From: Atractiella rhizophila
Lineage: Eukaryota
DNA: 62,790 nt
Direction: 5' to 3'
NCBI GenBank assembly: GCA_021432655.1
Contig: MU271180.1
Span: 232,980-295,769 of the forward strand
Below the pieces are notes generated by a model. The model saw nothing but the letters and a program-made list of their open reading frames with translations, ran no database searches and had not been told where the DNA came from. The first letter of the stretch is position 1. Every line of letters begins with the position of its first letter. Of this stretch, positions 12,568 through 51,993 are shown piece by piece. Made by a program: the position numbers and the translations under genes.

Positions 12568-13059
12568 AAGGTCTCCGTCACCCTCCTCAATTGGCCCGCC
12601 TTCGAGTCCTCCACCAAGAGCTGGAGCGGATTGGTCCCCTCCCCAAGCGCAGAGGACGTCGCCGGTCACATCTTCTTTAGGTTTGGATTTGGACCTGGTG
12701 GAAGCGGGAGGAAGTGGGTGGAAGCGAGGATTCAGCTTGGAGGGAAGCCACATTTGAGGGAAAGTCAGGCTAAGTTGGGCAGCCCGCTGGTGTTGGATAA
12801 TCCCCATTTCGTGAAGCCGGAAATGGTGATGAAGCTTGATGATGTTATGTTTAGGGATTGGGAGGTGGAACTGGAGTTGGAGATGGGCCTCATTAAGGAT
12901 GAAGACGAGTGAGATGAGTGTGGAATGCGTGTCATAACTTTTTGTCTCATTCACTCAGAATGCCATTTCCTCCGTCTCGATGGTCCCGAGTGTGAATAGT
13001 ACGCCATCATGCTAAACCTGCCAGTGATGAGTCGCGAAGTGGAGTTATCTCGCAAATTG
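12568..13059 (+). repeat. Left part of an inverted segmental duplication (12568-13059 plus 20218-~23050 versus ~33170-36510)
   Basis: Reverse complement of ~36015-36510 (GKPHL.ESQAKLGSPLVLDNPHF..LEMGLIKDEDE); homology resumes at 20218 after the transposon. Confidence 0.9.
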
Positions 13060-15194
13060 CATCATGAAAAAAAATTCTGACTGGCCAAACCGGATCAGGC
13101 CATCTTATCCATCAGACCTTAAGAGGACGGTCAGGAGTGATCAGTGATGGTAACATTATGACGAGTCGTTAGGTCCAAAATGATCAGAGCGTCACCAGCG
13201 CAAAAGAGTGGCAGGATCAGAAACGAGTCTGGCGGCGATCAGAACTCAGGCTCTAATGCATCAGGCTCCCGTCAGATACGGGTCAGGTAACTGTCAGAGT
13301 CCGATCAGAACTCTCCGAGCTATTTATCACAGCCCTATCAATTGCTGATCACCCAATAAGACTACCGATACCTGATCCTAAACTGCTGGTTCACTTGCCC
13401 TTATAGCTTGTCTGCTGCCTTCTGCAATTGATAACGTTATTAATCTACTCCAAATTGCACACTATGCTATGTATCCCCGCAATGTACATCGATTGCCCAG
13501 TGCTTCTCTGCACTCCACTCTCTTCTCTCCATCAACAGCCCTTCTAATTACTCCTTGTCACATAATACCGATGGATGTCGTAAGAAACGAGGTCGTTGCC
13601 GGAACTAGATGGCTGGAGCGCAGTATTGGTCGCAAAAGCCAGACAATCAGTGTTTGTGTAGCATGGGTAAGCAGACAAACGTACGCGAGGATGGTAGAGT
13701 TTCGGCCAACACTAGCAAAATAAGAAATTGCTTTAATCACATCTGCCAGTGAGTCTGGTGACGAGACGAAGTTGGTAAGTCATTGAATGTCGTAGTCAAT
13801 ATCGCCTGTTGACTCACATGGTTTAGGGAAATTGGAGAAGACTAGGGTAACAAAGATGAGGAAAGTGGTTTTTGTCGAACAGCTGTAACGTCATGGACCG
13901 TGTCGGAAGGAAGGAAGGAGGAAGAAGAAAGTTGGTGACCGCGTAGGACTGGGATCAAGACAGAACTGTTTGACAAAGGGCATTAGACCTGTGAGTGGAA
14001 AAAGGGAGAGAACAAACGAGACAAGAACCGGGTGGATTGTTCAGCAGTGGGGTCAGGACACCAGCCTTGCAACGAGGTGATTGTTCGCCCATCACCACCT
14101 GCCTTCAAGATGCGACATCACCGCCTGCATTCGAGATTGTGAGAAAGTTATCACATGAACAAAATATCCATAGAACTCGCGAAAACGATTGCAGATGAAT
14201 GTTCACTCACTAAACTGAGACGAGAGGCGAATTCCAAATTGGAGACCACCTGGAAATGTGTCTGAAATAAAACGTCAGTTTGCTTCAAAAGTGTCAGCTT
14301 AACATCAGGTTCAAAGCTGGAAGCTGCGGGTACCCACTCTTAAACATAAAAAGGCGTACTTCGCAAGTTCATCAATCCTACCCGTTTGCTACCGTACTTT
14401 GCCACCAGGATTTTGCTGCCTACCACCGACATATCTTAGCCATGATAGCATCATTTTGAATTGAAAGGTGTCTGTGCTAGGGAAGGAGCAATGAGCTGGA
14501 AGAGAACAATAGGATTGGAATGGGGCAGTGAGGTGGAACGGAACTTGGTCGAAGAAATTTGTCCAGCTGGAACTAGTACCCTTAGGGGTTGTATCTCTCA
14601 CGTCATGTTCCTCTCCTCAATCTCCTCACTTGCGCAAGGCTTGAATGATCTTCACATCTATTGCATGAAAATTGCCACATGAACTAGGAAAAGAATGGGA
14701 AAGGGAATGTAGATGAGAAGGTGGATATTAGATGGAGTGCCGGATGTGGGCAGTGTTTGTGGCCATGTGGGTAGTTCTTTGTCGCAGTCACAGTGCCAAT
14801 AAGGGATTGGAGATGTGCCTCTTAAACTTTATTTCGTTTGAACCATTAGTGAGGACATATCTGATGTGTGGGATATCCCATCATTGTTTGCAAGATTACA
14901 TGCGTCAAATGAGCTGCTCCAACGGTTCGCAATGGACCCGCGTCGTAGGATGGATCTCTATCTCTCCTACTGTGAGCCTGAGCGCAATGCTAATGGCCGC
15001 GGTAGCTTCATTTGTGATTGAAAATATCTGCTAATACTGTTTGGGAATATACTTGCAGCTGAAAAGTAGTTGTCTGGTGCCGGCTCAGTTTACGCTCTGC
15101 ATGCAGATTAGTTTGAAGAGTAAGCTGAAGACCTTTGTTTGGGTTCAATGCTCTATGTACAAAGAAGATTCGAGTTCCCGAAGTCTTTCATACA

Positions 15195-16209
15195 TTACTC
15201 TGCATCCTTGTCTCCTTGCTCCTCCGTAAAATCCATACCAAATCCATCCAAAATATCTTGATCCTTGCCTGTTTCATCTGGTTGGGTACTGGTGGAGTCC
15301 CTCAAATTGTCCTGAGGGAACACTTCTCTATTCCAGAGCTGAATAAGATTGTGGAATTTGTCCACATGTTGTTCTTGAAGGCTTTCGAGCAATCTGACCG
15401 TACGTTGAAAATGGTCATGGTAATTGTTTACCTGCTCCATATTTGGGAGGATTGGCATTCTTCCTTCAGCAGCAAATACAGGATCTGCGGTTAAGGCGTA
15501 ACGTGCCTGCTTAGCTTTGAGAATGAGCTTAAAGTCATAAATGAGAGGACAAACAAGAGTTGAGCAGTAGGCCATTAGCGGAATTGAAATCTTGAAGATG
15601 GAAAGTTCTTTGCCAATAGTAGAAGCTCGAGCTTTCTCAGTTGTGCTATTGATGGCTGCTAACCCATGAATGATGATGCGTGCAACCTATTTTAACATCA
15701 GCAATCAACTATAGATAACATTCCGGAAACACACCTTGAATAAAGCTGCAGATCGGAGATATGCGCCCGCTTTGATTGCCTTCAATCTGTGACCTCCAAC
15801 CTCTGTGCAAAAATGTTCTCGAACCTCATGACCCATGGGTGATACAAAAGCACTGATGCTTTTCCGGCATGATATGCTTGAATCTTTGCCAGCTTGGTAG
15901 GTGCGATAGGTATAACCCGAGTCGAGTGACATCGTTTTGAGGGAGGTTCACTGCTGGCACAGTGTGCGATATCTTGCAGAGCATCCAGTTGCTCTTGCAT
16001 TTGGGCACGCTCTTCCTCCCACTGCTGGCGTTCGTCGTCCCTTGCTGCAACGATGTTCTGAAGAAGACTGAGCTCTCTTCTTTCATCATTTAACTATGCT
16101 CTGTCTCTAACCTATTTCTTTTCAACAAAAGGAGACAACGCACCTGTGCTTTCACCAACCTATATTTCCGCTTATAAACTCTTTCTGGATTGTTTTCTTG
16201 GTCCAACAT
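15195..16209 (-). CDS. Transposon accessory protein, DUF6698-like, intron-containing, possibly disrupted
   Basis: Coiled-coil N-terminus, then AYLRSAALFK..RIIIHG..ISIPLMAYCSTL/ARYALTAD..NYHDHF..LIQLWNREVFP, resembling DUF6698 (IAY..RFALS..WWN.VF). One in-frame stop near 15782. Confidence 0.5.
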
Positions 16210-16399
16210 GATATATCGTTTTAATAGATTTTGAGAAGTTCAGACAAACGATGTTGTAGAGAAGCAAGAGGCTGGCGCTTTTGAAGGTTTCGGCAAGGGA
16301 AAACAAGTGTGACGTCAAGATACACGTCACACGTCTATCAAAACAACAACTTCCTCCCTCCTGATTAAACTTTCTTCTGCATCCACAGACCCCCTTGAG

Positions 16400-19300
16400 A
16401 TGGCTCCTCGCTATACTAGAGTCAATGCAGTCAAGAAACTACCGAGCAATCAGGCAGAATGCCCTGATTGTCATCAAATATTTTCATACGCAAAAGGTGG
16501 CCTTAAGAATCATCGTGCCAGTCAACATCGTGTTGTCCCCCAAGAAGCTGGTTGGAAAGCAGTCAAAGTAGATGGAAGGAAAGTAGGACGGTATGAAAAT
16601 GTAAGAATGGTGCTACTCAGTTGTGGAAAATGTGCTAAAGTATTTAAAGGTCCCGCACACAAACTCTGAATCAGACATATCACAAGAATTTGAAGATGAT
16701 ATTTTAGTACCCTCCTTTCATGGGACAGAAGGGAATTCCGTTTCACGTGTGTTCTTCTCCTGTTAAATTGGGTGAATCCAAAAAGTTAATGGGCAAACTG
16801 GCTAGCCATTAGGTCTATTACTAGGGTTGAGCCGTCATGGACTCCATCCCTCCACCGCGCATCTTCTGAAGTCTCCTCTACGCCGGCAAACAACAGATCA
16901 TCCCCCTCTTCACCCGTTTCCAGTTCGGATGAAGAGGATGATGTAAATCTCAAGGAAGAACTGGGTGGTCCATACTTTCAATACCACCATCCCGATTCAC
17001 GGCGCCATTGCAAATCTACAAATCCCACCGGCACCTCTAATAAGCCACCAAGTCTGCCTCCTTATCATCCATTCAAAAGTGAGGTTGACTACGACATGGC
17101 TGCTCATACATTTTTTCAAGGCATGACACAATCAGATACAACGGCTTTTTTTCGAAACCTCAAGAAATGCGGGCTTGCTGAATTCAACTTGGATTCCTTC
17201 AAGCATTTGAGAGAGACATTGCAAAGGGATAAACGAAGTGTGATGGCATGAGCCCAGAATTTCTGCTTCAGGCCATTTATACTGATATGAAAAATAGTTC
17301 CATCATCACATCGTTTCAGCTGAGTATGGCGGCAACGCCATCAAGCATCATGTCTATATACGTGATCCTATTGAGATCGTGAAGGAAGTAATCCGTGACG
17401 ATACTGTACGGGAGTCTATGCAGTTCTACCCGGTCAAGGAGTTCAAACGCACTGACGAAGTTCCAAGTCGCAATGTGAGAACTTATGATGAGCTGTGGAC
17501 AACTAGACGCTGGTGGAGATATCAGGTTTGCGTTATTTTCCCAGCTTGTATTGATTATATACTCAATAGCACTGTAGGATTCACTGCCCAATACCAATGG
17601 TTGTATCGGAGCTATCATTTTTTACACAGATGGGACGAGTGCCGTCAAGTTTGGGCAGAAAACCGTGCATCCCATGTATATGTGGCTTGCAAATGTTCCC
17701 CTGCGAGAAAGGAGTGGAGATAGCAAAGGAGGATGCCAACTCATTGGATTTCAACCTGAAGTAAGGTCTCTCAATGTTTATAGTTCCTTCCATCTAACTA
17801 GCAATATTGTAGATTGTTGGAACAGATAAGCAAAAGAAGGACAAACTATTTCGCCAATATAAGCGTTCGGTATACCACAAAGTCATTGGTATTGTCTTGA
17901 AAGCCGTCCGCCGATATGAACGAGTAGGGTTCAGGGTGCAAGTTGGCCAGAACTTCGATAAACTGATATTTCCACGCATTTTCTTGGTCCAAGCAGATCT
18001 AGCTGAGTTGTGAGAACATTTCCAATTTAACAAATCTTCTACTTAACAATTCTAGATACACAATCCTCCTATTACTCGGTATTGGCTCCGAATTTCGGTG
18101 TCCAATCTGCCTTGCACCTAAATCCCAGCTGCACAACTTATCGCAACATTTTCCCAAGCGATGTCAGCAGCAGGTTCATCGTGATCTTTGTCGCTATGAA
18201 GAAACACAGGAAGCAAGCGAGACAGTGACAGCAGTAAGGGAACTGACAAGCAGCTCTTCTCTTCGGCCGGAAACGGTATGTTGTGCCTCCCTGTTCTTGA
18301 CTGCTTCTCCTAGAGCTGAAGTCCTTGGAGAATAGTCAGCTTTCAGCCGGCTGAAATGCAGTGATATCTATGACTGCATTGCCGCTGATCCCTTGCATGT
18401 CTTTGGCGGCTTGTACAAAGATCATGTCACGCGCAAGATCTTCGAAAAACTCTCAAGCGTACAGAAGGAGAAAATCGATTCATAGTATGTTGCTATTCTG
18501 CCCTTTACATGTGCTGAAGTATTCAATCGGCAGCCTCAGTTCCCTACCAACATTTGGCTCGCTATGACATGTTCCAAAACGGGGCCTGACGAACTTAGAA
18601 AGCTTTACGTGCATGGAGATCCAAGATGCGATGAAGGCACATATTTCCTTGTTGCAGCAGCCACAGTTCTACGAGTTGAACATTCACTACAGGCTTTAAT
18701 TGTAGGCATGATTGGGATCCTTCCTGCTGAACTCGAACAAGAAGTCGTTCCAGCCTTACGAGACCTTGCGGCTTTTGAGGTCCTTGTAAAAATGCACGTT
18801 CAGGACAAAGACAGAATCAGTGTCCTTCGACATGAGAAACTCGCAGCTGTTGAAGCTGCTTTGAAGGTTCACTAAATTCTCTTCTCTCTCCGGTTAACTT
18901 TCATTTAGCTGATGACGATAAAAGGTCCTTAGTGAACATTTCGGAATGTCGACGAAGTTTCCGAAAGGGCATCTTCCACAGCACTTCGTTGACCTCGTTG
19001 CCGAAGGTGGAACTCTGGACCATCAACTACAGCACATGGCGAACGATCCCACCGCCCACTGAAAGAGCACATTATAGCCCGTTCGCTTCACAGCACCATA
19101 GCAGGGGAGACAGAACTCTCTGTAAGCTGCTATGCACCTTTAACACTTTGCAAAGGCATTGACCCGTACTTGTATCAGATGGCTCAACGTGCGTTCGAGA
19201 TGATGCAACTTCAAGCCATTGGCCGCCGTATCGAAACAGCAAAACTCATGCAACAGGACCATTGCGAAAACGAGCGAGCGGTGCCATGTCGCAGGAGGCG

Positions 19301-19967
19301 AGATCCCATCGAACAGTCCCCTTTGTGTGGCGAGTCAAGAACATTTAACCTTCAGACTTACTTTGACAAATTATCCGCTGAATTCGAAACACGCCAGGAC
19401 CTGGTATCTGATCTCCGCCTGTTCCTACTTCGACTTCTGGATCCTTCAGCTCCAGCGCCGGTGCGTCAAGAGCGATTACCTCAGATTGATGATTCTATGG
19501 TTTGTATTTTGCTCACTTCATGCCACCACTGATACTGGCTTCCCAAAATTCAGGTTCGAGACTATACCCTCTTCCGCTGCCCATTTACTTCGTTGATTGA
19601 TCAAAGGAGCTATGAAGATTACATCCGATGCCATCCGAACTGGCAGAAGAAAGAGCCACGATATGACGACGCTATTCTGCAAAATAACGACGGCACCACT
19701 TCGTTCGGACGTCTTGTTCGGTTACTTTCTTGTTATGTTCAAGGGAGGGACTTTCGCATCATTGTATTTCACGAGTATGCTTGGATTGGCAGGCACCAGG
19801 TATCTGGCATGCCGTTTGTACGCGACGGAGACCGCTTCAGCTTTGCTCTTACAGACAACGTCGTGCGAAGTTGTTACATTCAGCCAGACCCCATCGAACA
19901 CAGATTTTATCATATTAATGATCTTGCGGAGGCTGATTTATTTCTACACTTGAAACACCTTGTCTAA
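16400..19967 (+). CDS. Plavaka transposase, multi-exon, with N-terminal C2H2 zinc finger
   Basis: CPDC..LKNHRASQH; PYHPFKSEVDY; YIRDPIEIVKE; RTYDELWTTRRWWRYQ; IIFYTDGTSAVKFGQKTVHPMYMWLANV; IRCHPNWQKKEPRYDDAIL..GRL. Confidence 0.85.
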
Positions 19968-20439
19968 AGTTGATCTCTTGCATATGGATTCCTATTGTTG
20001 ATTGCGAACCCATGAAGTAATAAATATACCATTTCAACAAGCTTAGAAATTTCAAGCTATGTATGACGTGATCAGAACCTCAGCAAAGCCCACCAGACAG
20101 AGAGCAGCCTATCAGGTACATATCAGACCGATTTAGGGCCTGATCAGTCTCTGCTCAAGCAGTGCCAGCCGTCAGTATCCATCAGGCGGTGATCAGTGAG
20201 AAAGGATTTTCGTGATGTGCCCGTACCCTGAGGCAGCAGAAAACGGAATGATGAAAGTCGTTCCCGCAGGAATAGAGCGTGCTGGAGGCCAAGCTGTAAA
20301 GGAGAGAAGAGGGCGACGTTCCACCGATGGCAGGATATCAGGATATCATGTTGTTCGATCTTTCGAGTCAAATGACTGGGACAGCGCACCACGTAATATT
20401 AATCATCCAGTCTCCTGCTTTGACTCATCTCTCCTCTAG

Positions 20440-23008
20440 ATGACGAAGAGGAAGACAAAGAAGACTGCAATGAAGAGAGGATCCCCGCCACCACCTGCCA
20501 CTCCCGACTCGATTCAAAACACAAAGCAAAAATATCAACAAGAGGCAACATCAAGAACGGTACCACCAAACTTCAAACCGTTGCAGCGCAACCTGCCACT
20601 AGGTGAAAAACTCGACATGGAATCACCCGTTGTGGTGTTGGAGGATCTACGGCCAAACATTAACATACCTGAGGTCGAACTGCCACTCGAGCTAACAACG
20701 TATAATGCAGCGGACTGGAAGGATGAGAACTCGATTAAAACTTGGATGGATGAGCTGTATCGCGTGAGTAATCACAGTTGATTGAGCACCATGAATGAAG
20801 ACACGGTCTAGGTCGTGCGCAAGGAAAAGTCCAGATACTGCCAAGGTGGTACACGAATGCAGTTGTCAGAGAATCTGTCGACCAAGGATTCTTCAAAGCT
20901 GGACGGAATCTTGGTCCACCATGAGATCGACCCTCCTGTGAAGGCGTACTCGAACATATCGCTGGCATTAGAATTCAGAGACCATCTTGAGAATGCTGGT
21001 TCGCACGAGAACACCCAATTAGCACGAAACGCTGCCTACACTCTCGGGGCGAGACCTCGCTGTTTTGTCTGGACTCTGTTGATTGATACAGCTGGAGATA
21101 AACATTACTCTTGGGTTAATAGTATGCGTGGTGGGCACTTTCAGGGAAAACCAAAACGCCTCGAAGACCATTTCAAAGAAGTCGCGCAGACCATCGCAAG
21201 GTTTGCGAAAGCGAGCGAGGAACAAATCGGATTTCTCAACATCTTTGATCACGATCCAGCGTGGCACTTCACCTGGGAGGTAGGCTGTCGGTCTCGAACT
21301 GAGGAGCCCGCCTCCAAAAACTCTTCCCTCTCAAGTTCCCGCGCCAGGCCACCCAACGACACCATGCCTTCAGCTGAGCTACCGTCCTCATCTGACAGCA
21401 TGCCGTCTTCCAATATGCTCCTTCCTTCGCAATTCATCCCAAGCCCAATCACAAATTTAAACTGGACCTAAACGGATGTTTGAAGGGATGGGATGTTGTC
21501 GGCAAGAGTTCCGAGTTTAAGCCCAACTGGGTCCAGGAAATTCTTTTTCGTTCATACTCTATTGCTGGTAGAGGAACACAAGTTTGGATATGCGAGCTGG
21601 AAGGAGGTGGGTATGGTGTCATTAAGCATGTATGGCTGACGGAGGACGTGTTGAAAAGGTTGGAGGAGCACGTAAAGCAGTTCAATGTTTGGAGGGAGCT
21701 TTGGAAGGACCAACCGCCACGAAATCTCGATGGATCGCCAGCAGATGCGACGGATTTGGAATGGCTTCGACACACTCCTCGTCTCATTCTTTCTCAGCCT
21801 AATCTTTCAACCAGAAAAATCCTGTCCAAAAATGCACTCTGGAATGGTGGCGATGTTTCGGAGGTCATGGAGACAGACCTAATTCCCGTCCTCATCTACA
21901 ATTCTACGGCCGGCCTCCCTCTTTCTTCAGCTGAACGTCTTGACGATGTGCTCGACGCGTTCAAAGGTGTCTTGACGCGTACGGACTTTCTTGTTGTTTT
22001 GGGGCTTACCTTGATTTGTTGTCAGAATTAGCCATGTTAAACGATCACGACCTTATCCATCGCGATGTTTCCTATGCCAACATCTTTATTCGCGAATTCC
22101 AGACGAACAGTGATGACGGGAATGCTCCAGCTGTCGGATGGCTGAATGATTTCGATTTCTCGATACGACGGGAGAAGGACAAGGGCGAACACCCTTCAAA
22201 GCCACATCCAATCTCAGTGAGTAGCTTGCCCTCGCCTGCATAGGCTTATTCTTGACCTTTCATTAAGGGAACCTTCCCATTCCTATCTCGATGCGTACTG
22301 AACGCGTTGACGGAAGAAGAGCCTCCGTACGAGCAGTCGGTTATGGATGACATCGAGTCCGTAATCTACTGCGTTATCTACTTTTTCTGCAATTTCTATC
22401 CGGACGCTGAAGGACGGCTCGTGAGGCGAGATTGGAGCCGCAAGCCGGACACACCAACAGGAGAAGGCTCTGGAAGGACCTTCAGTGGTTCCAGGGACCT
22501 GGAACAGAATGCCGAGGCGGATGAACGATGCTCGTCACATCACAGCGTCAAATCCGTGAAGGAACGATCCTCACCCCTCCACGGCGCCAAATCTGCAAAG
22601 GATCGATACTCGACACTTCGGAACATCATATCCGCAAAGGAAAAATCCTCACCAATTCACAGCGTTGAATCCGTTCCCCAGAACATTGACTATCCACTCC
22701 AACCGTGGTTGACTTTGGATAGTGCCTTCGACGCGAAATTAGTTCTGCTCAGCAAGTTGAAGTTGTCACGTTTTGCCAAAAATTTGAGGAAACATCTGGT
22801 CAACGATGGGAGTTGGAACGAAGACCACGTCACACGTCTACTCTGGGAACTCACTCAACCGCTTCAATTTCTGCCGGGAGAGGAGGAGAATAATTGGGCT
22901 GCCCTCTTTCCCGATGGATGCGACGAAAAAACAGTAGTTAAGGGCATTGTTGGAAAGATGGTGGACGCTTTGGAGCGGGGAAAGAAGAGATTTAATGGGA
23001 AACTGTAA
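20440..23008 (+). CDS. FunK1-type protein kinase, copy B; one homopolymer frameshift at ~21445
   Basis: GRGTQVW, HRDVSYAN, GWLNDFDFS, DDIESVIY; same intron positions as copy A. Confidence 0.85.
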
Positions 23009-23982
23009 GTTGCCTTCGTCTCCATCAGCTGAACGAGGTATAACGTCCACACCAGTGATCCCTCTGAAGAGTTCGACTTTGAACCTGCCTCGTAAGAGAT
23101 CAGTGGCATCCCAAAACAGGGCTTTGCGTTGGTTTTTTCCCATGCGGTTGTTTCCCAATGCACTTGCAGAATTGGAGTCTTGCGACATTGCTTACATTTA
23201 ACTGCATGATGTAAAAATACAGTCTTTCAATTTTATATACATTTCCCTCTTTCAAGTAAGCTCCTCCGTTCGCACACTTCCGCGAATGTTCACCCTCGAT
23301 ACTCATATGGATAATTTGAATGTCGTGCGGCTTAAGTGAGTGAGAAGGGCAGGACACATGCTTTCTCGGAAGGAAAGACGCACTCCTGTCGTAAAGTTAG
23401 CCAACAAGGAAGGGCAGAGGAAGGGCTGATAACAGCGGAAGTCACCACCTACATATCTTGCTTCTGTTTGATCACATTTTGTTCCTGCCTTTCGTTCCGA
23501 CGGTTCATTATCGCAAGAAATGGGTGCCTGAACGAGTCCTCAATCGGTGCGGGCCGCCACACGCGAATAACACCTAGGAGTTTGAGCAATTGTGGAGGGT
23601 CGGAAGCACACCAAACTACTGTGCTCACTGCACTACGATAAGGAGTGGAAGATCCCAAGTTCCCTGGAATCCCAGCGATCAATATTGTTGGCCATTCATT
23701 CAGGATTCGCCCCACGACTGATCGCTTCCACCTTCACGCGATTCGGTGCCCCAAATAGCACACTAGGTGCGAGGTGACGTCCGAGAGCTGTCGTGGGTGC
23801 CGCCATTGGAGCCATATAAAAGGACGATTTGAGCTTGCGTTGCGGCTGGTTCATACTCGTCACTGATTCTGACTGAATACGACTCGGAAGACAAAGCCAG
23901 AATAAGTAAGTCTTCTGCACCATGCCATGATTGATCAAAAGAGAAGAGAGGATCGACCTTTCTCCTGATCCCGATCACAGGA

Positions 23983-24326
23983 ATGAAACTCGCCCTCCCC
24001 GTCGCCTTCCTCTCCCTCTTCGCCTCCATCGCGCTCTCCTCTCCCACTCCGGAACCGATCCTGTCGCCCGAAGAGGCTGCAAGGCTGTTGAATCCTCGTT
24101 CGTGCTGCGGGTGCGATCTTCTCTCTTTCTTTTCTTGGTTGGAGGGATGCCGTATTGACTCCTTTCTGGTGGCGGCAGGGAACTGCCTTACACTTGGTAA
24201 GTCGACTGCACTCGTTCACTTGGTGGAGCTTGAGAAGAGCTGGAGGAGAAGAAGAGTTTGAACTGACTTTTGATGGTCGATGGATGGTGATGGTACAGCT
24301 GCATCGTTGGATCTTGCTGCGGTTAA
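23983..24326 (+). CDS. Small secreted cysteine-rich prepropeptide, 57 aa, copy 2 (exons 23983-24110, 24179-24196, 24299-24326)
   Basis: Protein identical to copy 1; splice sites conserved; four synonymous exon differences. Confidence 0.8.
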
Positions 24327-25353
24327 GCGACGGTGTTTGTTGTGGCTGATGGATTTGGAGGATAGCGAGAGTCGTAAAACTCGTTGTCTACGCCTTGCCT
24401 TCATGGCAGATACACAAAGCACCTAGCTCGTTGTGCTTGTTGACCCAATTTCATCGCGTTTTGCAACATTCATTAAGCGCAGGATGTGTGGATGGATAGA
24501 CTCAGATGGATTGACACGACTGACACGACTGATCGATAGCGTGCCAGGAACAACTTTGACAAACCTGAAAAATCTGATACAAGAGAAATATTCCAGGACC
24601 AGTTCATCCATCGCAATGTCTCGCTTGAATCTTTTGAATTTCTGGAAGGTGAGAGAAAATGCACATAGATTCGTCCTCTCCATTCATAGCATAAACACGC
24701 AACCTGGACATAAGTTATATCAAGCATATCCTCATTACTAGATAGCAGTCACCCTTCACTCAAACCTTCATTCAAAATACTTTCTCAAAAGGACCGCATC
24801 TCATGTCAAAATTATAACATGAAGACGATATACATCTAGCGCCATTTCACCCTCTGCCTGATTTGATTCAGAAAGCGCCTCCAATACTGTCAATTATCAT
24901 CGAAATCATCCTTCATTCACCGTTCTCATCTGAACTGACCAGCGACCTATCCAATATTGAATGCAATAATCCCATTTCCAACTTCATCCCAGGACATGCA
25001 TACCTTGCTTCAAGTTCAACTTTTCTCACATTATGTTGTTTCGATTGGGAGTGGGTATGTTTCGAGAAGACTGAAAGAAGAGCCGCACGGATCTCAGATT
25101 GCTGCCGACGAGTTGCCGGTGGGTAACATCTTCTTCTTGGTCCCCTATCACAACTCTTCTTCCGAGTCTCCTTGCTGCGTCTTAATCGTACGGATTCGAT
25201 TGCTGATCAGCGAAGTGATCGCTCTCACGTAGGCGAAGAGCTAGGCAAGGCAGCCTGTTAGGGAGAGAAGGCTTGGGTAGGTAATCACTCAGTACTATAC
25301 TCCTTCTCAGCGCAAAGGATATCGATAAAGGGTTCTCCATATCTATATCCACA

Positions 25354-27327: not shown

Positions 27328-27352
27328 NNNNNNNNNNNNNNNNNNNNNNNNN
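27328..27352. other. Assembly gap, 25 N
   Basis: Run of 25 N. Confidence 1.
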
Positions 27353-32520: not shown

Positions 32521-33215
32521 CCTCGACCGGCATGATTACTATTGCGTCCTTCTTTGTTGCATGTGCATTTGCTAGCAATAGGATTACTAATGACTTTACT
32601 CAGGCTTCTGTTTTCGTCCTCTTTGCAAGTCTGGTCATTCTTCTTATCGTACACTTTCAGCTAGATTTTTGTGGAATCTTCAATTGTACCGTTCCAACCA
32701 ACATGTCGTGCATTTAAGCACGAGTTGTCTGTTATGTTTCTTGAGGCGCATACGAATAACGACTTAGGCTCATTGGCACTGAAATAACTGACCAGACATC
32801 GTCGCAATTCAATTCTCCATCCTGGACGAGGTTGGGCAATATTGTTATCTCATCTATTAGGCTTCTGTCGTACCTTTCTCTCCTGCCACTTTGTGGAGTC
32901 AGTGTGGTTTCCTAAGTGGGACTGAGGGTACACGACGTATTCTAAGTAACCCGTCTAACTTAAGGTGCTTGTGAGGGAATGTTAATGAGGCAGCTTGCGT
33001 GCTGGGCCAAAATTCAAAATAAGACTGTATTTCTGCAAAATGCAATTGAATACAGGCGATGTGTGCAAGGCTGCATGTGCACTCGAAAAGAACCACAGGG
33101 ATGCAAAGTCCTGTTTGGGATGTAGCTGCGCTATTAGCATGGCTAAAGGCCGACCTCTTCAGAGGGATCACTAGTGGACGTTATACCTCGTTCAACTGAT
33201 GGAGACGAAGGCAAC

Positions 33216-35800
33216 TTACAGTTTCCCATTAAATCTCTTCTTTCCCCGCTCCAAAGCTTCCACCATCTTTCCAACAATGTCCTTAACTACTGCTTTTTCG
33301 TCGCATCCATCGGGAAAGAGCGGACGCCAATAAATGCCGTTTACAATATCTTCCGACTGAAGTTGAAGTGGCCGAGTGAGTTCCCACAGTAGACGTGTGA
33401 TGTGATCTTGGTTCCAACGCCCATCGTCGACCAGATGTTCGCTCAGAAGATGGGTAAAAGCTGGTAAATCCGTTGGTTTGTTGAGCAGTAGTAATTTCTC
33501 GCTAAAGGCACTTCTCAGAGTCAACCACGGTCGGAGTGGATAGTCAATGTTCTGCGGAACGGATTCAACGCTGTGAATTGTTGAGGATTGTTCCTTTGCG
33601 GATTTAGCGCTCTGAAGTGTCGAGGATCGATCCTTTGCAGATTTGGCGCTATGAAGCGTTGAGGATCGTTGCTTCGCCGATTTGGCGCTCTGCTGTGCGG
33701 AGGATTGTTCATTCCCCTTGACATTCTGTTCCAGGTTCTTGGAACCACTGAAGGTCCTTCCAGACCCTTCTCCTGTTGGTGTGTCTAGCTTGCGACTCCA
33801 ATCTCGCCTCACGAGCCGTCCTGTAGCGTCCGGATAGAAATTGCAGAAAAAGTAGATACAGCAGTAGATAACTGACTCGATGTCATCCATAAGCGACTGC
33901 TCGTACGAAGCCCCTTTCTTCTTCAACGCCTTCAGTACGCATCGAGACAGGAATAGGAAGGTCCCCTGAATGAAGGGTCAAAGAACAAACATCCAGGGCG
34001 AGGGCAAGCTGCTCACGGAAAGTGGATGTGGCTTTGAAGCATGTTTGCCCCTGTTCTTCTCGCGTCGTATCGATAAGTCGAAATCATTCAGCCACCCGAC
34101 AGCTGGAGCATTCCCGTCATCACTGTTCGTCTGGAACTCGCGAATAAAGATGTTGGCATAGGAAACATCTCGATGGATAAAGTCGTGATCGTTCCACATG
34201 GCTAATTCTGTTAACACGTCAAGGCAAGCCCAAAAACAACAAGAAAGTCCGTACGCGTCAAGACACCTTTGAACGCGTCGAGCACATCGTCAAGACGTTT
34301 AGCTGAAGCAAGAGGGAGGCTGGCCGTAGAGTGGTAGGTGAGGACGGGAATTAGGTCTGTCTCCATGACCTCCGAAACATCGCCGTCATTCCAGAGAGCA
34401 TTTTTGGACAGGATTTTTTATGGTTGAAAGATTAGGCTGAGAAAGAATGAGACGAGGAGCGTGTCGAAGCCATTCCAAATCCGTCGCATCCGCTGGCGAT
34501 CCATCGAGCTTTCGTGGCGGTTGGTCCTTCCAAAGCTCCTCCAAACATTGAACTGCTTTACGTGCACCTCCAACCTTTTCAACACGTCCTCCGTCAGCCA
34601 TACATGCTTAATGACACCATACCCACCTCCTTCCAGCTCGCATATCCAAACCTGCGTTCCTCTGCCGGTAATGGAATATGAACGAAATAGAATTTCCTGG
34701 ACCCAGTTGGGCTTGAACTCGGAACCCTTGCCGACAACATCCCATCCCTTCAAACATCCGTTTAGGTCCAGTTTAAATTTCTGATTGGGGCTTGGGATGA
34801 ATTGGGAAGGAAGGAGCATAGTGGAAGACGGCATGCTGTCAGATGAGGATGTTAGCTCAGCTGAAGGCATGGTGTCGTTGGGTGGCCTGGCGCGCGGGAA
34901 CTTGAGAGGGAAGAGTTTTTGGAGGCGGGCTCCTCAGTTCGAGACCGACTGCCTACCTCCCAGGTGAAGTGCCACGCTGGATCGTGATCAAAGATGTTGA
35001 GAAATCCGATTTGTTCCTCGCTCGCTTTCGCAAACCTTGCGATGGTCTGCGCGACTTCTTTGAAATGGTCCTCGAGGCGTTTTGGTTTTCCCTGAAAGTG
35101 CCCACCACGCATACTATTAACCCAAGAGAAATGTTTATCTCCAGCTGTATCAATTAACAGAGTCCAGACAAAACAGCGAGGTCTCGCCCCGAGAGTGTAG
35201 GCAGCGTTTCGTGCTAATTGGGTGTTCTCGTGCGAACCAGCATTCTCAAGATAGTCTCTGAATTCTAATGCCAGCGATATGTTCGAGTACGCCTTCACAG
35301 GAGGGTCGATCTCATGGTGGACCAAGATTCCGTCCAGCTCTGAAGAATCCTTGGTCGACAGATTCTCTGACAACTGCATTCGTGCACCACCTTGGCAATA
35401 TCTGGACTTTTCCTTGCGCACGACCTGGAGCACCGTGTCTTCATTCATGGCGCTCAATCAACTGTGAATCACTCACACGATACAGCTCGTCCATCCAAGT
35501 TTTAATCCAGTCCTCATCCTTCCAGTCCGCGGCACTATACGTCGTTAGCTCGGGTGGCAGTTCGACCTCAGGTATGTCTATGTTTGGCCGTAGATCCTCC
35601 AACACCACAACGGGTGATTCCAAGTCGAGTTTTTCACCTAGTGGCAGGTTGTGCTGCAATGGTTTGAAGTTTGGTGGTGCCGTTCTTGACTTTGCCTCTT
35701 GTTGACATTTTGACTTTATGTTTTGAATCGAGTCGGGAGTGGCAGGTGGTGGCGGGGATCCTCTCTTCATTGCAGTCTTCTTTGTCTTCCTCTTCGTCAT
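33216..35800 (-). CDS. FunK1-type protein kinase, copy C; several homopolymer frameshifts
   Basis: GRGTQVW, HRDVSYAN, GWLNDFDLS, DDIESVIY; inverted paralog of copy B including its upstream region. Confidence 0.85.
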
Positions 35801-36164
35801 CTAGAGGAGAGATGAGTCAAATGCAGGAGACTGGATGATTAATATTACGATGTGCGCTGTCCCAGTCATTTGACTCGAAACATCGAACACCATGATATCC
35901 TGCCATCAATGAAACGTCACCCTCTTCTCTCCTTTACAGGTTAGCCTCCAGCACGCTCTATTCCTGTGGGAACGACTTTCATCATTCCGTTTTCTGCTGC
36001 CTCAGGGTACAGGCAATTTGCGACATAACTCCACTTCGCGACTCATCAGGTTTAGCATGATGGCGTACTGTTCACACTCGGGACCATCGAGACGGAGGAA
36101 ATGTTGTGATGAACAAACGAGAATGAATGAGACAAAAAGTCACAACACGCATTCCAAACTCATC

Positions 36165-37597: not shown

Positions 37598-38022
37598 TGT
37601 CAGGTTTGCATCTTACGCAAATCGGCGCCCGTTCGCCGGATTGCGTCTCCTATCGCCCATTTGCGTTCCCTGCTAATCGGCGCCCGTCGCCACTGCGTCT
37701 CCCGTCGCCTATTTACACGCAGTGCAAAACGGCGCCCGTTCGCCCGTTCTCCCGTTCTCCCGTTCGCCCATTAGCACCTACATCACCACTTAGCCCAATT
37801 GTGCCTATCCTCCTCTCATTAACTCCGCGTAATCCCACTGTCACTTCCCTTTTAGTTCTCTTACAGGTTTCATCTGCTCTCCTCTACACTCTGTGGCAGT
37901 GTTATTCCGCTTGTATATATAGATCAGAGAGTAGTGGAGGTGACCTTAGAGTATTCTCTTAGGTTTATCTCCACTACAGACGCATCGCCCGTCGGCGACC
38001 GCACATAGTGTCAGCCGTAACA
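37598..38022 (+). mobile_element. Solo LTR without matching TSD
   Basis: TGTCAGG...CGTAACA; TATATATA box; expanded cgcccgtt repeats; flanks CTTCT/ACACA. Confidence 0.85.
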
Positions 38023-38062
38023 ACACATTACAAACCAGCTGCAACTGAGACATTGAGTGAAG

Positions 38063-38411
38063 CGTTAGGGCTGACACTATGTGCGGTCGCCGATAGGCGA
38101 TGCGTCTGTAGTGGAGATAAACCTAAGAGCATGATATGACATGAAGACTAACCTGTAGTGGAGATAAACCTAAGAGAATACTCTAAGGTCACCTCCACTA
38201 CTCTCTGATCTATATATACAAGCGGAATAACACTGCCACAAAGCGTAGAGGAGAGCAGATGAAACATGTAAGAGAACTAAAAAGGAAGTGACAGTGGGAG
38301 TATGTGGAGTTAATAAGAGGAGGATAGGCACAATTGGGCTAAGTGGTGATGTAGGTGCAAATGGGCGAACGGGCGAACGGGCGCCGATTTGCGTAAGATG
38401 CAAACCTGACA
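38063..38411 (-). mobile_element. Solo LTR with 5-bp TSD TGAAG
   Basis: TGAAG at 38058-62 and 38412-16; reads CGTTAGG...CCTGACA with the terminal base mutated. Confidence 0.92.
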
Positions 38412-39324: not shown

Positions 39325-42300
39325 ATGACCAAGACCCACCGACATCTACCCCTCCTCCCACACAACCAGCTGCTATGGCGACTTTGACCCCAGTGCGGCA
39401 TTCTTCAAGGCCCAATCTTGGGACAAGCCCTATGGATCGTTCGATTTACACAGAGGATTCTCCTCCCTTGCCTCACCGTGTTTCTCTATCACTTTCAACA
39501 CCTAGTCACAACTCCTCTCCGACCTCAAGGCATTCTGCAACTCGAAGGATTCCTTCTCAGGTTAGTCCCAAATCTCATTGACTTCGAGCTTGTTGGTGAA
39601 TTGTGGGTATAGAATGTCCAAGGAAGTAGTGGGTCACCACTGATTCTAAGTGATTTGGAGCATTCCGTTACACAGATACCAGTTAAGGAAGCAGTATGTT
39701 CTCATGTCATATCTGATTTCAGTGTCTTATTCAATCAGCTATCGCCGTGGATTCCAAAGCGCTCTACCCTTGCTGCTAGGAGAGAGGCGCTCCAACCACA
39801 GCTGAAGAAGAAAGTAGGTTTTTGTTCATTGATTTCTTAGAGTTTCAAGTTAATTGATGGACGTGTAGAATGATACCTCAGCAGCAAAGAAGGACAAGAG
39901 AAAGCGTCGGCAGCCTCATACAGAGGAGGATGAATCTGAGGAGGAACTAGTGGCAGGCAACAAAATTGTATGTTTTTCTTTTTTCAGCAAATCCACATCA
40001 TACTAATATATAACCCTGTGAGAAGCAGACTGCGGTCAAGCTACCGAAGGGGAAGAGTTGGATGGAAGTGCACACAAGATTGAACAAGATTTCTGCCCCA
40101 GTGTTAGGGCGGACACTATGTGCGGTCGCCGATAGGCGATGCGTCTGTAGTGGAGATAAACCTAAGAGCATGATATGACATGAAGACTAACCTGTAGTGG
40201 AGATAAACCTAAGAGAATACTCTAAGGTCACCTCCACTACTCTCTGATCTATATATACAAGCGGAATAACACTGCCACAAAGCGTAGAGGAGAGCAGATG
40301 AAACATGTAAGAGAACTAAAAAGGAAGTGACAGTGGGAGTATGTGGAGTTAATAAGAGGAGGATAGGCACAATTGGGCTAAGTGGTGAAGTAGGTGCAAA
40401 TGGGCGAACAGGCGCCGATTTGCGTAAGATGCAAACCTGACACCCAGATGATTCTGAGGATGAGGAACTGGAGCGGAAGAAACCAAAGACAGAAAGCCGG
40501 AGAAGCTATGGTAGTGGTCAACTACAAATACTAGATCTCTACAAGGTGCGCAGATTGTCAGGGTTATGTGGTGGAGTGACTGAGCGATGTTCCCGGTGTT
40601 TAGTGGGTTGGAGGAACCAAATGGGAGGATTCTACTGAAGACAAACCTGCTGAATTCACCTGCAGGCAATGTGGGTACATCGGGCCTGTTGCTCTGGAAG
40701 GTTCTCAGTTCCGAAACTAATATGCTCTGTAGAAAGAAACGGAGTATGTCCACAAAGAGGTACTCTAATTGCAATAGTCATCTGCATGACTACCAAAACT
40801 GACACCTTGCAATTCAAATTGTCGGTCATGATCCACCTCCTCTCCCTGCTTCAAAGGTCCCAAAATCAGCACCCGGAGATCCATCTACCTTCGAAACCTT
40901 CAAGCTAGTTCCAAAGAAAGAAGTTGACCGCTTCTTCCGGAAAATGGTTGAGTGGATTATTCGGAGAGATCATGCATGGACTGTTGTTGAAGAAAATGAG
41001 CTTGAGCAAGCTATCAAGCTCCTGAAGCTATTGATGAAACTATAAGGTTCCACGATGGCAAGAAAGTGGGCTAGAAGATTATATGATGCATTGAAGGAGC
41101 AGGTGCAGAAAGAGTTGGACGAATTGATGGTATTTTCTTTTACAATGTTAGTCATTAGCTCACTTGCCTTAAAGGAGGACGATAAAGTTCACCTTGAGAC
41201 TGACATCTGGACCAGCCTGGGACAGATGCACATGATCATGGGGACGATTGGGCATTTCATCGATCAAGACTGGAATCGAAAGCGAAGGGTCCTTCGAGCA
41301 ACAGTGTTTCAAGAGTCGCATACTGTGCCGATGTTGGCAAAGCAATTAACGAAAGTTATTACCAATCATAATCTTGTGAAGAAGTTTGGTTTGTTTTTAT
41401 TCCTTTGTTTCACTTTGTCCTGACAGTAGGGGCACAGGAAATATCACTGAAGATTCCTGCTCTGTCAATCTCACCTCACTTCCTTTCCTTTCCACCCAAT
41501 TAAAAGTACAGCACAAGACACTTTGGGACCCAGATGACAACCACTCTTGGTGTGCAGCCCATGTCGTCAACCTTGCAGCCCAAGATGCAATTGCTGCCGC
41601 TGGAGTTGGACCTTTGTCTGATGAGATTGATGTCTATATGCTTGATAAGCAGTTGGGGGTTCTCACGAAGATTGTGAGGAAGCAACAGAAAAGCCAAAGG
41701 AGAAGGGGAAGGGGAAGGATAAGGATAACTCTGAGAAGAAATCTTTGGAGAATGTGGCCTGGCTTGTGATGAGGAAGGCTGGTCTGAAGCTGAGTCTGGT
41801 GATTGGGATACAGAACAACCTCAGCCTCTGCTTGTACAGGCAACTGGCATAATCAAGCAGTAGAAATGGAGTGTACAGGATAAGGTACGTTATTTTGTTT
41901 CATCAGGCAGCTTGATTAACTAGTAACATAGATTGTCAAAATCTCAAAGGCCATTCGGCGGACACATGGACGACGGAAGGCATTCCTCAAGGTTTCACAG
42001 AAACATTCGAAGCCAAAGGATCAGAATCTTCTCCTGCTCAAGAACAATACGACACGCTGGAACTCTACAAATAAGACCCTCCAATGTGCTTTGAGATTGT
42101 GGAAGGTATGACATTGAGCTTGAGTATTGATCTACCCAGTTAACTGCGTATATACTCTCATTAGGCAATTCACCACTTTTGTGATCTACCCTGGAGAGCA
42201 TTCTACAAGTATTGTCCTACTGAAGAGGAATAGAAGGAAATTAGGACTATGTCAGAGGGCCTTACTGTTTGTTGTTTCCTTGTTATCATATTGTCTGCTA

Positions 42301-43865: not shown

Positions 43866-46212
43866 TTACAGCTTCCCATTAAATCTCTTCTTTCCCCGCT
43901 CCAAAGCGTCCACCATCTTTCCAACAATGTCCTTAACTACTGCTTTTTCATCGCATCCATCGGGAAAGAGCGGACGCCAATAAATGCCGTTTTCAATATC
44001 TTCCAACTGAAGTTGAAGTGGCCGAGTGAGTTCCCATAGTAGACGTGTGACGTGATCATGGCTCCAACGCCCATCGTCGACCAGATGTTGCCTCAGACGG
44101 TACGTAAAAGCTGGTAAACTGGTCGGTTTGGAAGTGTTGAGAAGAAGTAATTTCTCGTTAAAGGCACTTTTCAAAGTCAACCACGATTGGAGTGGATAGT
44201 CATCGTTCAGTGGAACAAATTTGACGCTGTGTATTGTTGAGGATTGTTCCTTTGCGGATTTAGCGCTCTGAAGTGTTGAGGATCGATCCTTTGCAGATTT
44301 GGCGCTATGAAGCGTTGAGGATCGTTCCTTCGCCGATTTGACGCTCTGATGTGCCGAGGATCGTTCATTCGCCTCGGCATTCTGTTCCAGGTCTTTGGAA
44401 CCACTGAAGGTCCTTCCAGACCCTTCTCCTGTTGGTGTGTCCGGCTTGCGGCTCCAATCTCGCCTCACCATCCGTCTTTTCGTGTCCAGATAGAAATTGC
44501 AGAAAAAGTTGATAACGCAATAGATTACGGACTCGACGTCATCCATAACCGACTGCTCGTATGCAGCGTCCTTCGTCATCAACGCTCTCAGTACGCATCG
44601 AGATAAGTATTGGAAGGTGCCCTTCATGACGGTCAACGAATCATCCTATGAAGGCGAGTGGCAAGCAACTCACTGAAAGTGGATGTGGCTTTGAAGCATG
44701 TTTGCCCCTGTTCTTCTCCTTTCGTATCGAGAAGTCGAAATCATTCAGCCATCCCACTACTAGAGCATTCCCGCCACCCGTATCCGTCTGGAATTCGCGA
44801 ATAAAGATGTTGGCATAGGAAACATCTCGATGGATAAAATCGTGATCGTGTAATATGGCTAATTCTGTCAGGAAGTTAAGCAAGCCCAAAACAAAATGGG
44901 AGCACGCACGAGTTAAGACACCTTTGAACGCGTCGAGCACATCGTCAAGACATTTAGCTGAAGAAAGAGGGAAGCCGGCCGTGGAATGGTAAATGAGGAC
45001 GGGAATTAGGTCTGTCTCCATGACCTCCGAAACATCGCCGTCATTCCAGAGAGCATTTTTGGACAGGATTTGTATGGTTGAAAGATTAGGCTGAGAAAGA
45101 ATGAGACGAGGAGCGTGTCGAAGCCATTCCAAATCCGTCGCATCCGCTGGCGATCCATCGAGCTTTCGTGGCGGTTGGTCCTTCCAAAGCTCCCTCCAAC
45201 CATTGAACTGCTTTACGTGCTCCTGCAACCTTTCCAACACGTCCTCCGTCAGCCACACATGCTTAATGATACCATACCCTCCTCCATCCAGCTCGCATAT
45301 CCAAACCTGCGTTCCTCTGCCGGCAATAGAATATGAACGAAATAGAATTTCCTGGACCCAGTTCACCATGAACTCGGAGCCATTGCCAACGACATGCCAT
45401 CCGTTCAGACATCCGTTTAGGTCCAGTTTAAATTTATGATTGGGACTTGGAACGAATTGGTAAGGAAGAAGCATAGTGGACGACGGCGTGGTTGCAGATG
45501 AGGACGCTGGCTGGACTGAAGGCACGCGGACGCTAGGCGACCTGACGCGGGACCTTGAGTCGGAAGAGTAATTCGTGAAGCCTGGCTCCTCAGTTCGAGA
45601 ACAACTGCCTACCTCCCAGGTGAAGTGCCACGCTGGGTCGTGATCAAAGATGTTGAGAAATCCGATCTGTTCCTCGCTCGCTTTCGCAAACTGTGCGATG
45701 ATCTGTGCGACTTCTTTGAAGTGGTCTTCGAGGAGTTTTGGTTTTCCCTGAAAGTGCCCACCACGCATACTATTAACCCAAGAGTAATGATTATCTCCAG
45801 CCGTATCAATCAACAGAGTCCAGACAAAACAGCGAGGTCTCGCCCCGAGAGTGTAAGCGGCGTTTCGTGCTAGTTGTGTGTTCCCATCCGAAGCAGCACA
45901 CTGAAGTTCGTCTCTGAATTCTAATGCCAGCGATATGTTCGAGTACGCCTTAACAGGAGGGTTGATCTCATGGTGGACCAGGATTCCGTTTGAAGAATCC
46001 CTGTTCGATGGATTCTCTGATAATTGCATTGCTGGATCACCTTTGCTGTATCTGGACTTTTCCTTGCGCGCGACCTGGAGCACCGCGACTTCATTCATGG
46101 TGCTCAGTCAACTGTGAATTACGCACGCGATACAGCTCGTCCATCCAAGTTTTAATCGAGTTCTCATCCTTCCAATCCGCTGCGTTATACGTCGTTACCT
46201 CGGGTGACAGTA
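43866..46212 (-). CDS. FunK1-type kinase unit D (core plus C-terminus, lacks N-terminus)
   Basis: Uninterrupted 485-aa ORF with GRGTQVW, HRDVSYAN, GWLNDFDFS; last exon ends GKKRFNGKL*. Confidence 0.85.
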
Positions 46213-51752: not shown

Positions 51753-51993
51753 CGAGACTCGATACAGAACTTATCTCTTCAATGAGAAGTGTAGTTAGAT
51801 GCCAATGATTATTTAGTTCAATGCATTTTTGCTAACGTTAAAGAGACAAACAACACGGTTTTGAGCACTTGAATCTCCAAGTGCGAGTACTATTTAAAAA
51901 AGTTATGCTTACTCTTCCCGATTTTTTGATGCCGTGAATCCGCCCGTCCATTTCATCCACAATAATTTATTAGGCGCCTGTAGGACACACATA

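Follow-up and report, generated by a model that had tools for sequence, protein, structure and literature searches.

The window analysed here comprises 62,790 nucleotides of contig MU271180.1 of Atractiella rhizophila (assembly GCA_021432655.1, positions 232,980 to 295,769 of the forward strand), and it contains a 7158-bp segment at 13060-20217 that is, with high confidence, one copy of a PlavakaB-type DNA transposon of the CMCT clade (EnSpm/Mirage/Chapaev/Transib/Plavaka). The segment is a bounded insertion with a target-site duplication (TSD) and terminal inverted repeats (TIRs), and its borders are exact to the base. Two divergent genes lie inside these borders, a transposase gene with two lesions and an open gene related to the Pfam family DUF6698. 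The features of the element, its target and its empty counterpart are as follows.

13058..13059, plus strand: left TSD, TG, which occurs once in the empty paralog
13060..13070, plus strand: left TIR, CATCATGAAAA; 10 of its 11 positions agree with the right end and one differs (T versus C in a CpG)
13093..13308, plus strand: left subterminal repeat zone, eight copies of (G/C)ATCAG, all on the plus strand
13309..15194, no strand: internal region of no recognised coding content, with no credible Pfam family in the scanned open reading frames (ORFs) and no Rfam match
15195..16209, minus strand: accessory gene, DUF6698-like, open, five exons (16209-16144, 16057-15824, 15785-15732, 15683-15432 and 15338-15198, then the stop codon)
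16210..16399, no strand: 190-bp spacer between the divergent genes, from the gene models
16400..19967, plus strand: Plavaka transposase gene (gene model), conceptual product of 972 amino acids (aa), 13 exons (16400-16600, 16650-16746, 16806-17239, 17298-17525, 17578-17760, 17813-18009, 18056-18275, 18336-18484, 18534-18636, 18693-18866, 18925-19121, 19179-19499 and 19554-19967)
18565..18567, plus strand: premature stop TGA at codon 581
19024..19026 (about), plus strand: 1-bp deletion, a frameshift
20070..20196, plus strand: right subterminal repeat zone, six copies of NATCAG on the plus strand, as at the left end
20207..20217, minus strand: right TIR, reading inward CATCACGAAAA, with which the published PlavakaB-1_AuSu begins (11 bases identical)
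20218..20219, plus strand: right TSD, TG, from the junction letters
36014..36015, minus strand: unoccupied target TG, inside the inverted paralogous segment 33151-36512

Borders, termini and the empty paralog

At the left junction, the host letters tcgcaaatTG (TG at 13058-13059) are followed directly by CATCATGAAAA, the longer read being CATCATGAAAAAAAATTC; at the right junction, TTTTCGTGATG (20207-20217) is followed by TG and then by cccgtaccctgagg, and the wider letters are GGATTTTCGTGATG up to 20217 and TGcccgtaccctgagg from 20218. The empty paralog on the minus strand reads tgtcgcaaatTGcctgtaccc, with a single TG at 36015-36014. Self-BLAST of the window aligns the left flank (12575-13060 with 36512-36013, 87.2% identity) and the right flank (20218-23075 with 36015-33151, 91.6% identity) to this paralog, and the two alignments adjoin with an overlap of 3 bases. 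Because both flanks align contiguously to one inverted duplicate, the 7158-bp block splits one copy of it between two TGs. A global alignment of the flanks without the insert to the paralog gives 92.0% identity (3059 identical positions, 161 transitions and 104 transversions). Additionally, both filled junctions are spanned by contigs from two DNA sequencing runs; in run X1, record 1 spans 13031-15258 with 0 differences and record 8 spans 19200-20252. The original prediction had drawn the borders 13060..20217 from the empty site at about 36000-36022 on the minus strand, and they are confirmed by the junction letters, the self-BLAST flanks and the run contigs.

With the positions fixed independently by the empty site, an inverted match of at least 10 of 11 bases is expected by chance with P = 8e-6. 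The exact motif CATCAYGAAAA is present in the window only at the two element ends, and allowing one mismatch adds 5 further window sites (7 matches in total versus 3.07 expected). The subtermini are strongly biased in one motif and one strand: the ratio of ATCAG to CTGAT in the outer 260 bp is 8:0 at the left end and 6:1 at the right (14:1 for the ends together), as against 9:13 in the interior, and 15 of the 37 ATCAG/CTGAT sites of the element fall within the outer 2 x 260 bp, which make up 7.3% of its length (P = 1.7e-8). The subterminal word (G/C/T)ATCAG resembles the element terminus itself. Since ATCAG lies on one strand at both ends, the motif faces the interior of the element at one end and the flank at the other, so that the two ends are not equivalent; this structural asymmetry is testable as a possible determinant of end recognition. 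A search of the element for Rfam families and tandem repeats gave nothing relevant. The cut-and-paste type of insertion, the CATCA termini, the 2-bp TSD and the subterminal repeats that had been proposed for this locus are borne out by the junctions, the TIRs and the ATCAG clusters.

Two points weigh against this description. Only one site informs the TSD length, which could formally be either 2 or 3 bp: the insert begins with C, and C is also the base after TG in the empty site, so that the site alone does not separate a TSD of 2 bp (TG) from one of 3 bp (TGC). In addition, the case for mobility of the Atractiella element family comes from one insertion, and the run contigs contain the left 2 kb of the element as a single copy. 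An empty-form joint in run X2 (13057>20218, one contig, shorter side 26) was not counted as an insertion polymorphism, as it is indistinguishable from the paralog in the window.

A TSD of 3 bp (TGC) in the same element, with ends ATCATG...CGTGATG as in classical EnSpm/CACTA elements, agrees with this shared C, with an empty-form joint in the run contigs at which 3 letters suit either side, and with the published PlavakaB TSDs of 2 or 3 bp (PMC12730594). It is nevertheless improbable, because it offsets the ends by one base (ATCAT... versus CATCA...) and loses both the 10/11 TIR and the defining CATCA terminus; symmetric CATCA...TGATG ends are obtained only when the TSD is read as 2 bp. That no insertion took place, the 7.2 kb being ancestral to both duplicates and deleted from the 36-kb copy by recombination at TG(C) microhomology, is extremely improbable: microhomology of 2-3 bp is common at deletion junctions, and there is only one occupied and one empty site, but the borders coincide exactly with a PlavakaB-type 10/11 inverted terminal repeat and motif-rich subtermini, and the segment encodes the matching transposase and is unlike its flanks in CpG content and GC.

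The transposase gene and the decay of this copy

The transposase model was built from paralog guides, frame-preserving GT/GC..AG candidates and contigs of run X3 that skip short segments, and it contains 12 introns of 46-60 nt, eleven of them GT..AG and one GC..AG. Run X3 supports the introns 17526-17577, 17761-17812, 18485-18533, 18637-18692 and 18867-18924, as well as four further exon ends (16806, ~17239, 19121 and ~19499). Its record 19 joins 18367-18484, 18534-18634, 18691-18852 and 18922-19121 with 0 mismatches, and GT..AG joints are also present at 17523>17576 and 17760>17813. The annotated protein P0010 (296 aa) is an exact substring of the conceptual product (residues 285-580), with exons 4-9 the same.

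A Pfam profile search had been named as the check on the Plavaka identity, and the outcome is clear. P0010 matches PF18759 with 115.2 bits (4.7e-33; cut-off 26.3 bits) over profile positions 68-322 of 325; three consecutive plus-strand exon ORFs, out of 18 ORFs scanned, match the same profile (36.9, 26.7 and 19.2 bits), and the paralog P0005 does so at 1e-36. Plavaka is the sole Pfam family at E <=0.01 for P0010 and its paralogs. In an alignment of 50 Plavaka sequences, D326 and C450 are invariant and D431, C453, H610, H614 and E634 are at least 90% conserved; these columns map to D338, D443, C462/C465 (CPIC), H678/H682 and E702 of the product. The transposase thus has the CMCT-clade arrangement D-D-[C(2)C]-[H(3)H]-E, its putative catalytic residues being assigned from this conservation and from the clade layout D-D-C(2)C-H(3-4)H-E described by Kojima (PMC12730594). 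Additionally, the N-terminus of the transposase carries a C2H2 finger.

The relatives returned by three word-indexed searches (4 of 247, 2 of 638 and 2 of 12 candidates) are all A. rhizophila hypothetical proteins. Over 628 aligned residues the conceptual product shares 75% identity with the paralog P0005, and its identity to P0002 is 67%. Of 788 representatives, the 150 best include seven close matches with 57-81% identity, and the others among these 150 are at most 34% identical; of ten proteins that were looked up, six close ones and P0015 belong to A. rhizophila and the remaining three to Agaricomycetes.

Three observations qualify the gene model and the family assignment. Run X3 is of unrecorded kind, and although its GT..AG joints fit spliced complementary DNA, they could also come from a DNA retrocopy. 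An X3 contig lacks 11 nt (18856-18866) that are present in the window, and one X2 DNA contig lacks them as well, which indicates that the X3 contig comes from a slightly different copy or strain. Membership of the CMCT clade would predict an RNase H-like catalytic core similar in structure to RAG1/Transib; a sequence-profile search of solved structures (PDB) found none that is relevant (best E 0.69).

The original prediction regarded the transposase as largely intact and proposed a spliced gene model as the check. This holds in part: the frame is otherwise open over its 972 codons and is 75% identical to its paralog, but the 13-exon model contains two lesions upstream of the catalytic E, and the uninterrupted frame of an autonomous transposon is therefore absent. 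At the premature TGA, the paralog P0002 has Arg in the same ...HVPKRG... context, and P0010 ends exactly at this TGA in the public annotation. The 1-bp deletion lies between GGTLDH and TTAHGERSH and puts E702 out of frame; contigs of runs X1 and X3 span 19024-19026 without a gap, so the frameshift is no assembly slip. Because both lesions precede E702, the copy cannot encode an active transposase, and the window copy is, as read from its sequence, mutationally dead.

The observed/expected CpG ratio is 0.73 in the element versus 0.87-1.04 in its surroundings, and the mismatch between the TIRs is a CG-to-TG difference. The nonsense codon is likely to have changed from CGA to TGA, given the Arg in P0002. 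Both the TIR mismatch and the nonsense codon would fit methylated-CpG decay after insertion.

The depth of the X1 contigs at 17471-20252 is about twice that of the left part of the element (~225-254 versus 128-160), and there are variant contigs that lack the 11 nt of 18856-18866 and one base at 19849. The doubled depth and the variants suggest another, nearly identical partial copy, an allele or a difference between strains. This second version of the right part differs from the window by ~0.4-0.5% (4/1052 nt and 6/1251 nt in contigs).

The element was inserted by cut-and-paste into the upstream part of one inverted kinase-repeat duplicate, duplicating TG. A course of events consistent with these results can be proposed. 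The transposase would recognise the CATCA termini and the clustered ATCAG subterminal motifs and would cut at the element ends, with a 2-bp staggered cut in the target; DDE chemistry is presumed from the family. CpG decay after insertion would then have produced the TIR mismatch and the nonsense codon, and the dead copy would depend for any further movement on enzyme from a paralog that recognises the same ends.

The DUF6698-like gene and its counterparts in metagenome loci

P0007 (249 aa), annotated in A. rhizophila as a hypothetical protein, agrees letter for letter with the accessory gene, and the sequences thus identify two annotated hypothetical proteins of this fungus, P0007 and P0010, as genes of one dead transposon. 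The 190-bp spacer between the two genes is presumed to be a bidirectional promoter. P0008, a 50%-identical paralog of P0007, matches DUF6698 (PF20414) with 59.9 bits (3.6e-16), above the cut-off of 23.7 bits. P0007 gave sub-threshold leads only in the ESM Atlas, one DUF6698 cluster row at 0.81 among them, and a poor model (predicted local distance difference test, pLDDT, 0.43). A Pfam search of 18 + 52 element ORFs (the 52 from the left 3.3 kb, at least 35 aa) found neither Tet_JBP nor another credible cargo family.

Metagenome contigs were scanned with a 10-sequence Plavaka alignment, which gave 598 pattern matches, of which 174 were confirmed and the best 80 loci used. With P0007 and P0008 as queries, tblastn finds DUF6698-like sequence near the transposase in three of these loci (L022, L050 and L009). 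Among the 49 ORFs of 13060-16400, the accessory ORF alone matched the 80 loci by tblastn; the ORFs of 13309-15194, a region that is single-copy at >=85% identity in the run contigs, had no tblastn match there. A hidden Markov model (HMM) of the accessory protein was seeded with five sequences (P0008, the window ORF, L022, L050 and L009) and searched against 6926 ORFs. Six further loci were found in the first round (E 8e-16 to 2e-4) and five more in the second (E 1e-12 to 1e-4).

The placement of the module is directional. Where the downstream flank reaches 2.5 kb or more (18 loci), 13 loci have it downstream on the same strand; where the upstream flank does so (14 loci), 0 have it upstream. 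No module is on the opposite strand, and the gap between the transposase match and the module is 1-7 kb. Two checks are independent of the HMM: hhalign of 11 metagenome ORFs against the Atractiella pair reaches a probability of 95% over 102 columns (E 3.6e-8), and Pfam DUF6698 directly matches 3 of the 11 metagenome companion ORFs at E <=1 (best 5e-7). One locus with a weak module match (L037, 1e-4) starts with a PlavakaA-type end. The counts of 13/18 downstream versus 0/14 upstream suggest that Plavaka elements are two-gene transposons, and the association with DUF6698-like sequence appears to hold for Plavaka at large, although the Atractiella element has its genes in another order. The DUF6698-like protein would accordingly be a recurring second component of Plavaka elements, and possibly a partner that binds the ends or regulates the element, like TnpA of En/Spm.

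On this basis we tentatively put forward, as a possibility that may well fail, that a DUF6698-type protein is a conserved second gene of A- and B-type Plavaka elements from Pucciniomycotina to Agaricomycotina, as old as the family. Together with the finger, it may act on the ATCAG repeats as TnpA of En/Spm does, pairing the ends or regulating the element. If true, this would place a domain of unknown function in a biological context and turn Plavaka into a two-component system. If the companion also holds in curated consensuses, a large orphan family of basidiomycete proteins would be transposon-borne, which bears on the annotation of mushroom genomes. A two-gene Plavaka with DUF6698, or any mention of DUF6698, was not found in the literature searched. 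The main text of PMC12730594 contains 0 mentions of DUF6698; the long table cells of its supplement are represented in part, so that a listed protein could be missed.

Several results speak against a DUF6698-type second gene. The accessory ORF, taken as its last large ORF, scores 21.3 bits (2.4e-4) against DUF6698 and P0007 scores 17.2 bits, both below the cut-off, and the first 12 metagenome ORFs gave 0 of 12 matches to Pfam DUF6698 at E <=0.01. The second-round E-values include self-hits of the sequences that built the HMM, and these are to be ignored. Moreover, the accessory gene of the window is upstream and divergent, whereas the metagenome modules are downstream on the same strand.

This difference in position and orientation also suits an alternative that we consider unlikely, although it is the strongest of those weighed here: that the DUF6698-like gene is a host gene, either captured or a neighbour, or else a selfish gene of its own that tends to occur near Plavaka, and no functional component of the transposon. 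The module is shown inside element borders for the window only, and Plavaka is known to take up cargo such as TET/JBP genes (PMC12730594); furthermore, none of the X3 contigs lies on the accessory gene, which says nothing about its expression. On the other side, the window gene lies inside borders set by the empty site, and it is open here despite the broken transposase. The association is both directional and frequent (13/18 versus 0/14), and it spans lineages that are ~25-30% identical in the transposase, including L037 with its PlavakaA 5' end. We therefore continue to favour, tentatively, a second Plavaka gene.

Element ends were also sought in the metagenome loci. CATCA...TGATG pairs occur 13 times in the 53 loci of at least 3 kb, versus 0-4 for eight control 5-mers, but they were not used, as none spans the transposase match. 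B-type terminal words were found 9 times versus ~2.5 expected; two occurrences of CATCAGCAAAA (L046 and L048) lie inside the transposase match, and none of the words is shown as an element end. Similarity borders between loci of the same family yielded PlavakaA ends only. These PlavakaA-type 5' ends come from three pairs of loci (L010/L011, L019/L020 and L033/L037), with TGTCAGAAATCT in one pair and TGTCGGAAATTTCT in two, and they match the published PlavakaA termini. Separately, positions 3225-6338 of L036 are a 3.1-kb insertion missing from the 96%-identical L021 (12969-12971), with a 3-base CTA overlap at the junction; it starts with CTGTGAGATACAATG, whose reverse complement lies near its other end, and is probably another nested TIR element.

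The host segment and comparison with known systems

The flanking repeat is no classical transposon: a fungal protein kinase domain (PF17667) is present in the copies that are best preserved, and other copies are degenerate. The best-preserved kinase ORFs (44644-46107 and 46772-48235, minus strand) belong to two copies of a 2127-bp unit arranged head to tail (44085-46211 and 46213-48339), which share 98.8% identity and each contain a 488-aa PF17667 ORF, and degenerate copies of the unit lie at 1701-5780, 20440-24502 and 33151-35800. The insertion is ~220 bp upstream of the unit common to all copies of the kinase repeat. The inverted segmental duplicates, part of a FunK1-kinase-like paralog array, are ~8% diverged, as compared with ~0.4-0.5% between the versions of the element, which suggests that the insertion is younger than the segmental duplication.

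Several other features of the window were observed. A mini inverted repeat, CATCATGctaaacctgccaGTGATG, lies in the host flank at 13005-13031, ~30 bp left of the insertion, and resembles the element termini; its copy in the paralog (36040-36065, minus strand) is 6 bp shorter, and those 6 bp are also missing from most run contigs. It could be a chance occurrence or an old footprint. Repeats of ~220-350 bp with 95-97% identity (38061-38411 with 40100-40442, direct; 37751-37979 with 38381-38153, inverted) may be the ends of another mobile element. Beyond the repeat-rich part, on its right, are ordinary genes (51898-52959 and 62055-62453), one for a cytochrome c heme lyase (PF01265) and one with an acyl-CoA dehydrogenase C-terminal domain, and an assembly gap of 25 N is at 27328-27352.

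The terminal features place the window element in PlavakaB, as far as sequence comparison can do so. PlavakaB is defined by 5'-CATCA..TGATG-3' termini and TSDs of 2 or 3 bp (Kojima 2025, Biology 14:1741, PMC12730594), and its published 5' ends include CATCAGCAAAA, CATCACAAAA and CATCACGAAAA (supplement). The window element has CATCATG at 13060 and CGTGATG ending at 20217, a TG/TG duplication (one insertion, with TGC formally possible) and a right-end 11-mer equal to the start of PlavakaB-1_AuSu, and its 7.2 kb is close to the shorter published families, judged by partial lengths (PMC12730594). The premise of the original prediction that Plavaka elements are mostly known as protein domains is outdated, and with it the novelty claimed for the ends, as the PlavakaB ends are already defined in that paper and Plavaka TIR motifs have been characterised in Marasmius (Hiltunen 2021, PMC8290104). 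The core finding is thus an ordinary one, in that the PlavakaB terminal structure, published in December 2025, is confirmed in a new fungal subphylum with an empty site in the same window.

The differences from published PlavakaB concern host, sequence and gene content. The host is a member of Pucciniomycotina (Atractiellomycetes), whereas Agaricomycotina were the source of the Plavaka families in PMC12730594, and that paper assigns the Plavaka-like elements of Puccinia to EnSpm, with CAC..GTG ends. The string "Atractiell" has 0 occurrences in the text and supplement of that paper, although the supplement also lists a _TuBo family, and no paper on A. rhizophila together with transposable elements was found in the literature searched. 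The window transposase is at most 34% identical to proteins from outside A. rhizophila among the 150 best representatives. CATCA termini and a 2-bp TSD in a lineage ~25-30% identical to Agaricomycete transposases imply that this end type is old or was transferred. Furthermore, the window copy is mutationally dead, its ORFs contain no TET/JBP gene detectable with Pfam, and it has a divergent DUF6698-like gene of a kind that the main text of PMC12730594 does not mention.

With En/Spm (CACTA), the window element shares the cut-and-paste DDE type, the clade, a short TSD, short TIRs and clustered subterminal motifs. The two-gene layout TnpD/TnpA of En/Spm is, we presume, the counterpart of the transposase and second protein of the window, although the second gene has no shown similarity to TnpA. 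The termini are CATCA rather than CACTA or CAC..GTG, the TSD is most likely 2 bp rather than 3 (a 3-bp TSD being obtained only with asymmetric ends), and the subterminal motif keeps to a single strand at the two ends.

PlavakaA elements have the termini TGT..ACA and a 2-bp TSD (PMC12730594). The window element belongs to the same Pfam family and has a TSD of the same length, and a DUF6698-like module also lies downstream of a PlavakaA-ended transposase (L037), but its ends are CATCA. The giant Plavaka elements of red algae (Bostrychia preprint, 10.1101/2025.02.11.637652) are 17-19 kb long and carry PAG1-3 (methylase/SET, ParB-like/2OG oxygenase); according to the same preprint, fungi have TET/JBP as their only Plavaka accessory gene. 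The window element resembles the giant elements as a Plavaka-lineage transposase element with accessory gene content, and none of PAG1-3 is seen in it. By comparison with these systems, what appears to be new here is the Atractiella host lineage, the DUF6698-like second gene, and the one-stranded ATCAG subtermini.

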